Origin: Escherichia coli
Lineage (GTDB): Bacteria; Pseudomonadota; Gammaproteobacteria; Enterobacterales; Enterobacteriaceae
Length of the DNA: 64,000 nucleotides
Assembly (NCBI RefSeq): GCF_009931435.1
Contig: NZ_CP043414.1
Strand: one strand, 5' to 3'
The translations under genes and the position numbers were made by a program. The notes under the pieces were generated by a model that did no database searches, was not told where the DNA came from, and was given only the letters and a program-made list of their open reading frames with translations. Within the stretch, counting starts at the first letter, position 1. Every line of letters begins with the position of its first letter. Below, piece by piece: positions 18,511-21,096 of this stretch.

Positions 18511-21096
18511 TTATACCTGCGATACGTTAAACCATGTGCCGTTTATGTATTTTTGCACCGGCCGGTAAACCGCTGAGTTATCGCCATCAGCATCCCCGAC
18601 AAGACAAAGCCCCGTAATGACATGGCCGGACTTCTCATACGTCACGCCTTTTTGCATGCCCTGAACAACACGCGTACCCAGCCGGATATCCCTGACATAG
18701 CGGATATCAAAATTACTGTAATCGGAAGGATTAACGCGCCCGGACACATTCAGCCCTTTACTGACCTGAATGCTGCCGTTTGTAAAGCGCATTACACGTG
18801 CGTTACCGGCGTAAACATCAAGATTACCGTCGCCGTTTTGTTTCAGGCCTGTGTCGCCCCTCCCCAGCGCAAGTGAATGACCGCCCAGCGTATTCTGTGC
18901 ACCGATACCCACCGCGCCATCCAGGGTCCCGCCCGTTGTCGTGAACAGACGCTCCCAGTCCGCCTCAAAGCCATAGCCATCACGGGCGGAGCGGTAAAAT
19001 ATCCCGCCATTCCGGTAATTCACCCGAAACTGGACCGCAGGGCAGCTGCCTTCCCCTGTATTAAAATGAAGAATTAAGGATGATGCGCCACCATCCTGTG
19101 CACAATAAGCGCCACTGTCCAGGTTCCAGGCGACGGCATCTGTATCGGCGAGCGTTTCCCCGGTTTTTCCCAGCGCAAAGGCCGGTGGCTTGTTTTTCGT
19201 GTTGTAGTCACGACGCCAGCCAGGGGAATAACCATCACCATGATTAATATAGGTAAACTGCGCATTCGCCGTTCCACTTCCGCTGGATGTTGTCGGTGTG
19301 GTTATGCGGATCGTCATCGCTGACTTTATCCCCATCACCTCAATGACAGCGCCGGCGAGATGAATATTTCCGCAGCCCGTATCCGTGATGATTTTATTAT
19401 TACCGTAAGACCAGGAGCCCTTGCACATCCAGTATGGGTGGTTAAATGCGCCCTGAGACTCCAGCCACCCGATAAACTGTGCGGTCGTCCAGTCTCCTGT
19501 CGTTGTGCTTACGGCCCCACCGAAAGCACGGCAGGCACCAATATTTTTCGTAAAGGTGTCTTTGTCGGGGACATCCGCACCGTTCTTATCTTTCTGCAGT
19601 CGTTTCTCAGCATTCTCACAGGCGGCTTTTACTGCCTTTGGTGTTGCCGCCAGTGACTCGGAAGTGCTGTTGGTTGCACTGCTGAGCTGGACTATCCCCT
19701 TTTTCGTCGTGCTCGCATCCTCAAGCGCCACGGCAGACGCAATATCCTCCGCCCGTTTTGCCGCAGTCTCAGCGCGCGTTGCCGCGGATTCTGCCGTGCT
19801 TTTGCTCTGTGCTGCCGCTGTCGCACTGCCAGCTGCCTCTGTCGCCTTCGCGGATGCCGTCGTGGCACTGCCCTGCGCCTCTGACGCCAGCCTTGCCGCC
19901 TCATCTTTTGAAGCTGACGCCGATGATGCTGATGACGCCGCCGAACTGGCGGACGATACGGCTGCCGTTTTTGAGGATTCTGCGCTGGTTTCCGACGCTT
20001 TCGCGTTCGTCTCGGATGTCCTCGCAGCGGAAGCAGACCTCGCTGCTGCAGTGGCCTGTTCAGTGGCTTCGCCAGCCTTCGTTGTGGCTGCTGAAGCGGA
20101 CGATGCGGCGCTTTCTGCCGATTTTCCGGCGGCGGTGGCACTGGCTGAGGCCTCCTCCGCTTTAACTGACGCCTCACGGGACGATGATGCAGCGGCAGTT
20201 TCTGAGCCTGCTGCTGCGGAGGCACTCTGTTCCGCTGCCGTTTCAGAAGACCTGGCGTTCGTCTCAGACGTCTTTGCCGCCTTCGCGGAATTTCCTGCCG
20301 CCGTTGCCGAGGAAGCTGCGCTACCGGCGCTCGAGGCTGCGCTCGTTTCTGATGATTTTGCCGCCTCTTTTGAGGCCGCCGCATCCCTGGCTGACGTGGC
20401 AGCTTCTGACGCTTTCGTGGTCGCGGTGGATGCAGACGTGGCGGCTGATTGTTGTGACGCTGCCGCATTCGTTTCTGACGTTTTCGCGGCACCGGCACTG
20501 GTGGCCGCCGCGCTTTTTGAGGACTCTGCAGCGGCAGCACTTTTTGATGCCTCAGCGGCCTTTGCTGAGGCTGTTTCTGCGCCGGAAGACGCTTCCTGAG
20601 CCGACGTCGCAGCCTGTCCGGCGGACGTGCTGGCGGCGCGTGCTGAGTCCGCAGCATCAGTCGCATGGGTTGCCGCCTCACGGGCTGATGTACCGGCATC
20701 GCTGGCGGATTTTTTCGCGGCTGCCGTGTTCTGTGCCACTGCGGACGCGTTACGCGCCACCTCTTCCACCATCAGTTCAAAACGGCGCAGTGCCTCCGGA
20801 CGGGCATCATCCTCCGTCATGGCACCGAGAAAATCATTCAGCGTACCGGGTTGGGAATCTTCATACACGGTGATGGTCCCGGCATGTGAAGGCGGAAAAC
20901 CGTCAACCAGCAGGATGACACCGTACTGGCCGTACTCAACGTCCATACTGTAACGCCCGGCTTCATCCGGATTTTCTGAGGCCACCGTGTTCACCACCAC
21001 CGTGGTACTGTTACGTTTTGCTTTCAGCTGAATGGTGCAGTTCTGTACCGGTTTACCTGCACCGTCTTTCAGCACGCCTGAAATCTTTACTGCCAT
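18511..21096 (-). CDS. stf: Side tail fiber protein Stf
   Basis: 861 aa; lambda Stf-like N-terminus (MAVKISGVLKDGAGKPVQNCTIQLKA), long Ala/Ser/Thr-rich low-complexity shaft, C-terminal receptor-binding region. Confidence 0.85.
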   Translation of the reverse strand: MAVKISGVLKDGAGKPVQNCTIQLKAKRNSTTVVVNTVASENPDEAGRYSMDVEYGQYGVILLVDGFPPSHAGTITVYEDSQPGTLNDFLGAMTEDDARPEALRRFELMVEEVARNASAVAQNTAAAKKSASDAGTSAREAATHATDAADSARAASTSAGQAATSAQEASSGAETASAKAAEASKSAAAAESSKSAAATSAGAAKTSETNAAASQQSAATSASTATTKASEAATSARDAAASKEAAKSSETSAASSAGSAASSATAAGNSAKAAKTSETNARSSETAAEQSASAAAGSETAAASSSREASVKAEEASASATAAGKSAESAASSASAATTKAGEATEQATAAARSASAARTSETNAKASETSAESSKTAAVSSASSAASSASSASASKDEAARLASEAQGSATTASAKATEAAGSATAAAQSKSTAESAATRAETAAKRAEDIASAVALEDASTTKKGIVQLSSATNSTSESLAATPKAVKAACENAEKRLQKDKNGADVPDKDTFTKNIGACRAFGGAVSTTTGDWTTAQFIGWLESQGAFNHPYWMCKGSWSYGNNKIITDTGCGNIHLAGAVIEVMGIKSAMTIRITTPTTSSGSGTANAQFTYINHGDGYSPGWRRDYNTKNKPPAFALGKTGETLADTDAVAWNLDSGAYCAQDGGASSLILHFNTGEGSCPAVQFRVNYRNGGIFYRSARDGYGFEADWERLFTTTGGTLDGAVGIGAQNTLGGHSLALGRGDTGLKQNGDGNLDVYAGNARVMRFTNGSIQVSKGLNVSGRVNPSDYSNFDIRYVRDIRLGTRVVQGMQKGVTYEKSGHVITGLCLVGDADGDNSAVYRPVQKYINGTWFNVSQV

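Follow-up and report, generated by a model that had tools for sequence, protein, structure and literature searches.

Introduction

The side tail fibre protein of phage Ur-lambda, gpStf, consists of a collar (residues 1–91), a linker (92–101), a trimeric proximal coiled coil (102–393), a hinge and a distal domain (PMC12617516). The N-terminal part (gpStfN 1–91) forms a dodecameric collar, and four side-fibre trimers project from the tail; they exceed the central fibre in length and are probably the first to touch the cell (PMC12617516). In prophages of enterohaemorrhagic Escherichia coli (EHEC), a fragment made of the PF08400 domain and a region named 'PCoil' was alpha-helical and trimeric by circular dichroism (CD), size-exclusion chromatography with multi-angle laser light scattering (SEC-MALLS) and rotary-shadowing electron microscopy (EM) (PMC3368898). 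The PCoil sequences follow a 'loose' Ala-x-x-Ala/Ser-x-x-Ser period, and their differences in length are multiples of seven (PMC3368898). Here we describe the side tail fibre gene stf of an E. coli prophage, which lies on the minus strand at 18511..21096 (stop codon 18511–18513 included) in a 64,000-nucleotide (nt) stretch of contig NZ_CP043414.1 (assembly GCF_009931435.1), called the window here. It is an open reading frame (ORF) of 861 amino acids (aa). We are highly confident that the Ala/Ser/Thr-rich tract of this protein is the proximal heptad coiled-coil rod of a lambda-type side tail fibre (Stf).

Comparison with known fibres

The window gene resembles that of (Ur-)lambda gpStf in its PF08400 head, where 87 of the first 94 residues are identical to lambda, and in its place downstream of J and upstream of tfa. 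It shows every feature of a lambda-type Stf that was testable. The same heptad register is found in lambda Stf, with a near-identical sequence to about aa 300 and DNA that is 88% identical over nt 1–899, and the shaft is followed by the KGIVQLSSATNSTSE motif in both proteins. Unlike in lambda, the shaft is 15 heptads longer, no lom gene stands between J and stf, and the tip is of the phage Mu S type, whereas the lambda tip is T4 gp37-like, OmpC-binding and His-rich.

The likeness to Mu S/S' (PDB 5yvq, 8ju3) lies in the motif KGxVQLxSATxSxSExLAATxKAVK and in a homologous receptor-binding domain (aa 443–733, whole-sequence E = 2e-133); as in Mu, a Caudo_TAP chaperone gene comes next. The aligned S/S' chains differ from the window protein in that the motif starts near residue 93 with no long heptad shaft before it and that they gave no PF08400 collar match. 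Mu itself is a myophage.

With the PfN-PCoil part of EPclA and EPclB (PMC3368898) the window protein shares the PF08400 head, the low-complexity Ala/Ser-rich heptads that follow it and the multiple-of-seven length rule. It differs in having no PfC domain, and the stretch scored as coiled coil is residues 101–245 there, against a much longer one of approximately 350 aa in the window. A collagen Gly-X-Y run is absent from the 861-aa translation, and a Pfam search gave no PF01391 match, so the protein is not a collagen-like member of EPclA–D. Among its distant matches, P0167, P0178 and P0258 do have a heptad shaft that runs straight into collagen-like Gly-X-Y repeats (GPPGPKGEPGPAGPQGPKGD...), which is the EPcl architecture (PMC3368898). 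As a domain, the shaft is already known: it corresponds to the characterised PCoil or proximal coiled coil, heptad quantisation included. The window is particular only in that its shaft belongs to the longest class (50 heptads), keeps its register with no interruption at all and is combined with a Mu S-type tip and no lom gene; such differences stay within the range of a well-known mosaic family.

Heptad periodicity of the shaft

The heptad-repeat shaft extends over aa 100–463 (19708..20799, minus strand) and holds approximately 51–52 heptads in one unbroken register, as seen by autocorrelation, a register table, a hidden Markov model (HMM) and an AlphaFold2 (AF2) model. Its Ala/Ser/Thr-rich part, delimited by composition, is aa 114–463 (19708..20757, minus strand; 346–350 aa). 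This part contains 132 Ala, 76 Ser and 37 Thr in 346 residues (71% Ala+Ser+Thr), and the GC content climbs to 0.62–0.64 over the shaft. The original prediction had placed an Ala/Ser/Thr-rich repetitive shaft at 19500–20700. Such a tract is real, and its coding strand is the minus strand. The interval lies wholly inside stf, but approximately 200 nt at its low end encode the KGIVQLSSATNSTSE motif and the first part of the tip domain, and approximately 60–100 nt of shaft are missed on the N-terminal side, where the shaft continues to about 20757–20799.

A protein segment of this kind could be a disordered, flexible low-complexity linker that has no defined fold and whose repetitiveness reflects nothing but composition bias. 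The extreme composition fits such a linker, as do the low AF2 confidence along the tract and the lack of a sequence match for it in the PDB. Composition alone, however, gives a residue-identity autocorrelation of 0.217 ± 0.019 at lag 7 (1000 shuffles), whereas 0.419 was observed (z = 10.9). At all multiples of seven up to 56 the z values were 7–9, and at lags that are not multiples of seven they were 1.2 or lower. The heptad consensus, A-[TS]-S-A-[TS]-[AE]-A, is repeated approximately 50 times in an uninterrupted register, with Ala at position 7 in 47 of 50 heptads, Ala at position 4 in 34 and Ser at position 3 in 35. A cyclic HMM returned a single tract, aa 111–457, with no phase break. A disordered linker is also hard to reconcile with a single register that is kept over 50 heptads and across relatives of very different length, or with the homologous regions, which are helical and trimeric by CD and SEC-MALLS (PMC3368898) and appear as a rigid rod in electron cryo-tomography (cryo-ET; PMC12617516). 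We regard disorder as extremely improbable.

The two heptads before the Ala-rich part, PEALRRF and ELMVEEV (aa 100–113), carry Leu, Phe, Val and Val at the same positions 4 and 7, and the periodic structure therefore begins near aa 100. The period is visible in the DNA as well, with z = 6.4 at lag 21 against codon shuffles and z = 3.3–5.1 at lags 42–126. Neither the lag-7 nor the lag-21 periodicity was seen in the N- or C-terminal parts of Stf. The internal repeats first suggested from the letters of the DNA are thus present at both the protein and the DNA level, and they are specifically coiled-coil heptads rather than generic low complexity. Repeats of an order above the heptad were not significant, since the best in-register match (20/28) equalled the 95th percentile of register-preserving shuffles. 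A multi-heptad duplication, for which KTSETNA at aa 205, 275 and 359 was a candidate, was rejected on the same value.

Structural interpretation

By analogy with the homologues, for which others have shown an alpha-helical trimer and its place in the virion, the approximately 51 consecutive heptads (aa ~100–463) would assemble as a coiled coil of three parallel alpha helices. Positions 4 and 7 have the spacing of 3 and 4 residues that characterises the a and d positions of a coiled coil. In the first two heptads the a/d core would therefore be built from Leu, Phe and Val, and from there on almost only from Ala (an 'alanine zipper'), with Ser at position 3 beside the core and Thr, Ser, Glu and Lys on the outside. 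In the E. coli Braun lipoprotein Lpp-56, an alanine-zipper coiled coil of three parallel helices, small Ala residues occupy a and d; this protein has 56 residues and a mixed Ala/Leu/Ile/Val core. The window shaft has approximately 50 heptads and a core made almost purely of Ala with Ser beside it, and the likeness between the two would be one of architecture. From ~355 residues at ~0.148 nm per residue, we estimate that the rod would be approximately 50 nm long. It may act as a rigid spacer between the collar that clamps the tail and the Mu S-type receptor-binding domain, and by analogy with Ur-lambda it may let the fibre touch the cell surface ahead of the central J fibre.

Several points weigh against this structure. 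The AF2 monomer, which was used for secondary structure alone, has predicted helices at aa 95–283 and 300–455, but it is a low-confidence model (mean predicted local distance difference test score, pLDDT, of 51.5; ~45–73 in the shaft blocks), and with its helix broken at aa 284–299 it gives no evidence for a straight trimer. The break, at which the model probably folds back, is likely to be an artefact of the prediction. The sequence search of the PDB matched the two ends of the protein only, and no experimental structure covers the shaft. A near-pure Ala/Ser core is atypical of coiled coils. Trimer formation, rod length and receptor use are inferred for this fibre. Finally, the authors of the Ur-lambda study report that AlphaFold3 mis-folds full-length gpStf, and their fibre was assembled from segments fitted to cryo-ET density (PMC12617516).

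Length variation among relatives

The original prediction recommended that the length of Stf be compared across related prophages. We measured shaft length as the distance (d) between the anchors RRFELMVEE (RRLELMVEE in lambda) and KGIVQLS. Strict anchor motifs left 13 usable relatives, and relaxed anchors left 33. The window protein has d = 362 aa and lambda Stf (774 aa) has d = 257 aa; the 105 aa by which they differ make exactly 15 heptads. Among the 33 relatives, which represent clusters at 50% identity, the classes 362, 313, 257, 250, 243, 159, 154, 145, 138, 109 and 89 aa were found. The length therefore varies, and mostly in whole-heptad steps: d mod 7 equals 5 in 29 of the 33 representatives (9 of 11 classes, d = 89–362), a count over mutually related proteins and not a formal probability. 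One lineage at 109 and a single protein at 154 depart from this rule, and the HMM flagged a phase break in both.

Differences among close relatives are of 7, 14 or 3 aa. Both anchors were found in 109 of the 120 closest, and the length was that of the window in 93, shorter by 7 aa in 10, by 14 aa in 1 and by 3 aa in 5, and longer by 3 aa in 1. These insertions and deletions (indels) lie at aa 421–427, at aa 409–422 and in a run of SSA triplets at aa 387–389. A deletion of three residues is a classical coiled-coil 'stutter' and hence tolerable. Because the heptads are nearly equivalent, whole-heptad indels would be structurally neutral, and the length of the shaft for that reason drifts between phages in 7-aa steps.

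Two giant distant matches, P0224 (2820 aa) and P0243 (4436 aa), have heptad tracts rich in Ala, 7 in the former and 14 in the latter, each ~32–200 aa long and set between stretches of other sequence; the two may be giant fibres or adhesins.

The 50-heptad class is the commonest in E. coli, and in the window it is paired with the Mu S-type tip. One could imagine that shaft length is an adaptive 'ruler', with classes of ~13–54 nm matched to the receptor-binding module or to the depth of the surface layer of the host, and that the strict register from collar to KGIVQLS keeps the rod continuous and the tip oriented. We consider this unlikely.

DNA-level repeats and stability

At the DNA level the repeats are highly degenerate. 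At lag 21 the DNA identity is 46% against 37.5% expected, and direct repeats in the tract are spaced mostly by multiples of 21 nt. No exact direct repeat is longer than 12 nt, and exact 11-mers occur in only six pairs. Tandem Repeats Finder (minimum score 30; 17000–23000) found no array in the shaft, and its sole call, at 17532–17563, is unrelated. The DNA repeats are too degenerate for this program, and the periodicity was for this reason demonstrated by autocorrelation. Head-to-tail DNA copies that are at least about 70% alike, as in a variable-number tandem repeat (VNTR), do not occur in the shaft.

These values bear on a different view of the tract, namely that it is a device at the level of DNA: a hypervariable tandem-repeat or contingency locus, in which rapid copy changes by homologous unequal crossing-over vary the length of the fibre. 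In favour of this view, length variants of 7 and 14 aa do exist among relatives that are more than 95% identical, and a single E. coli genome can contain up to 7 places homologous to the shaft. The missing tandem array, the low lag-21 identity and the short exact repeats argue against it, as do the indel junctions, where 5–8 nt of microhomology were found (read on the window DNA and approximate, since the variants did not descend from that exact sequence). The exact window length in 93 of the 109 measurable close relatives is not that of a hypervariable locus. In a comparison with the shaft of phage PhiR29_1, moreover, 69 of 102 substitutions fell at third codon positions of stf, which points to selection on the protein. 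A contingency locus is very unlikely on this evidence. We favour the rod of near-equivalent heptads, in which slippage or illegitimate recombination over short homology fits the indels better than RecA-type homologous unequal crossing-over inside the gene, given junctions that share 5–8 nt and exact repeats no longer than 12 nt. The length variation that had been predicted is thus found, but that it is 'recombinational' is an interpretation with which the low identity between repeats and the short junctions sit poorly.

Homologous exchange between phages is plausible. The DNA of the N-terminal domain and shaft is 88–92% identical across 238 phage records, and the similarity stops at differing points (nt 899, 1044, 1313, 1535 and 1916), beyond which the tips differ. 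Of 5426 complete E. coli genomes, 4089 contain shaft DNA. In a spread sample of E. coli records, all 1050 nt were matched over an equal span at 84–99% identity, with no net indels. The tract is widespread and stable, not hypervariable.

Domain architecture

The PF08400 profile (lambda Stf N-terminal domain) is matched over its full length (1–134 of 134) by aa 1–134 with E = 3.8e-73. The N-terminal collar domain itself, which would anchor the fibre to the tail, is placed at aa 1–94 (20815..21096, minus strand) by its match to chain 9e7m_Ta and the AF2 model. This chain is the lambda 'Tail fiber protein' with a solved collar domain (PDB 9e7m/9mgh; E = 6.1e-52 for aa 1–94). AF2 predicts beta strands over aa 3–77.

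The shaft is followed at aa 464–492 (19621..19707, minus strand) by the conserved motif TKKGIVQLSSATNSTSESLAATPKAVKAA, a hinge or 'phage fibre repeat 2'-like module recognised by reading the sequence and from alignments. Within it, the pattern KGIVQLSSATNSTSE..LAATPKAVK (phage-fibre-repeat-2) covers aa 466–490. In 37 relatives the columns K466, G467, V469, L471, A483–T485, A488 and V489 are nearly invariant. The motif also matches residues 93–173 of Mu S with an independent E-value (i-E) of 2e-16; this single copy gave no Pfam PF03406 match at E ≤ 0.01. In some relatives (P0052 and others), an extra module of 44 aa (..AAYDLANGKYTAQDATTAQKGIVQLSSATNSTSETLAATPKAVK..; 132 nt) is inserted directly after the shaft, following window aa 465. 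The same module occurs in the phage matches H1 and H4–H7. It is a second repeat system (phage fibre repeat 2), unrelated to the heptads, and its copy number varies too.

The distal receptor-binding region, of the phage Mu S/S' type, spans aa 495–861 (18514..19614, minus strand). It was identified by a phmmer match to PDB 8ju3_A (Mu tail fibre protein S,S'), of which the best stretch aligns aa 495–733 with chain residues 178–418 at 382 bits.

Open reading frames in other frames

Long ORFs are found in other frames over the shaft, as the original prediction had anticipated. On the plus strand, an Ala-rich ORF of 364 aa (19505..20599) shares its wobble positions with stf. On the minus strand, the +1 frame holds an Arg/Pro/Gln-rich ORF of 335 aa (19692..20699) and has no stop codon across the shaft. 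A second antisense ORF of 229 aa (20184..20873, plus strand) lies in a frame with 0.3 stops per 100 codons in the shaft. Two smaller ones, of 135 and 108 aa, are at 19758–20165 and 20627–20953 on the plus strand. Overall, stop codons across the shaft number 0 per 100 codons in the sense +1 frame and 0.3 per 100 in two of the antisense frames, against 1.5–8 in alternative frames of the rest of the gene. The cause is the codon content of the tract, rich in GCN, TCN and ACN (Ala, Ser and Thr), which depletes three other frames of stops and so leaves long, meaningless ORFs.

Could one of these ORFs, for example the one of 364 aa at 19505..20599, be a real overlapping gene? Its length might suggest so, but stop depletion is a mechanical result of the Ala/Ser/Thr codons. 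We compared the shaft with that of phage PhiR29_1, which is 90.2% identical and has no indels. Four of the five alternative frames were overwhelmingly nonsynonymous: 81 of 96 changes in the +1 frame of the 335-aa ORF, 84 of 96 in the frame of the 229-aa antisense ORF, and 90 of 94 in another. The frame of the 364-aa ORF behaved differently, with 59 synonymous and 35 nonsynonymous changes, a split that matches that of stf (59 and 34). Such an equal split is expected, because the two frames share their wobble positions and GCN reads as GCN again on the opposite strand. This count cannot separate stf from the wobble-sharing antisense frame. The antisense frame has two stops across the shaft in PhiR29_1 and one in the window. 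As the test is blind to the wobble-sharing frame, the strand was assigned from the flanking domains: only the sense frame runs on without a break into the PF08400 and Mu S domains, both of which have solved homologues. Antisense ORFs over the shaft have been annotated in phage ev099, and orf206b is present in the lambda record, yet we give an overlapping gene next to no chance, and stf is taken as the only gene here. Wobble-sharing antisense frames call for caution in tests of overlapping ORFs in GCN-rich repeats that resemble the ratio of nonsynonymous to synonymous rates (dN/dS).

The record of ev099 (LR597635.1; L004:1998–2860) lists antisense 'hypothetical proteins' over the shaft with no stf call there, and it divides stf between separate calls named 'Phage tail fiber protein'. 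In the lambda record J02459, orf206b is listed under the shaft match.

Gene neighbourhood

The order on the minus strand, with J upstream, then stf, then tfa downstream, is that of the lambdoid tail module. J (21155..24634, minus strand; 1159 aa) encodes the tail tip attachment protein, as seen from six gpJ Pfam domains and the ORF coordinates. Only 58 nt (21097–21154) separate the end of J from the start of stf, and no lom gene lies between them, unlike in lambda, PhiR29_1 and ev099. The tail fibre assembly chaperone gene tfa (17977..18507, minus strand; 176 aa) was recognised by Pfam PF02413 (Caudo_TAP, E = 5.3e-30), and its counterpart in the syntenic locus of E. coli MS 119-7 is annotated as 'tail fiber assembly protein'. 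A search of NCBIfam gave no match for Stf or Tfa. Because of the J and tfa neighbours, PF08400, and the matches to 9e7m and 8ju3, the gene is identified as the side tail fibre gene stf with a Mu S-type tip, in agreement with the name first given to it.

The stf module is the end of a lambdoid prophage that borders on tRNA-Ser(UGA) and hyaA. The tRNA gene (17398..17485, plus strand), found by ARAGORN, marks the junction of prophage and chromosome and adjoins hyaA, a layout that E. coli MS 119-7 shares. The region of tRNA-Ser(UGA) between hyaA and tfa is presumably the region of the prophage attachment site. A small tandem repeat with a unit of 11–12 nt and 2.7–2.8 copies lies at 17532–17563, just inside the prophage from tRNA-Ser. 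Among ORFs of at least 80 aa between tfa and tRNA-Ser, there was no inverted second pair of fibre tip and chaperone. The same prophage arrangement was found at ~98% identity in 17 complete E. coli genomes. Among 5288 homologues of the protein, the near-identical 861-aa P0003 represents a cluster with 743 member sequences.

In E. coli MS 119-7 the syntenic stf (L001:5712–8297, corresponding to 18511–21096) is a RefSeq pseudogene, 'incomplete; missing C-terminus', of which only 6735–8297 is annotated. Its 861-codon ORF is actually intact, and the product differs from the window protein at 4 residues. The pseudogene call is probably an annotation artefact of the mosaic of a PF08400 head and a Mu S tip.

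Conclusion

The findings matter mainly for annotation hygiene. Phantom ORFs of 135–364 aa over such shafts are deposited as 'hypothetical proteins', as in ev099, and a mosaic stf gene is sometimes flagged as a pseudogene though it is intact. The Stf homologues P0016, P0021, P0026, P0029 and P0064 have database names that include 'short-chain fatty acid transporter' and 'PPE-repeat protein'; the low-complexity shaft plausibly drives these wrong names. For phage engineering, the rod can probably be shortened or lengthened in whole heptads, and the conserved shaft is the place at which different receptor-binding tips are joined. Biologically, the window adds one more case of a heptad-quantised coiled-coil spacer in the side tail fibres of lambdoid phages.

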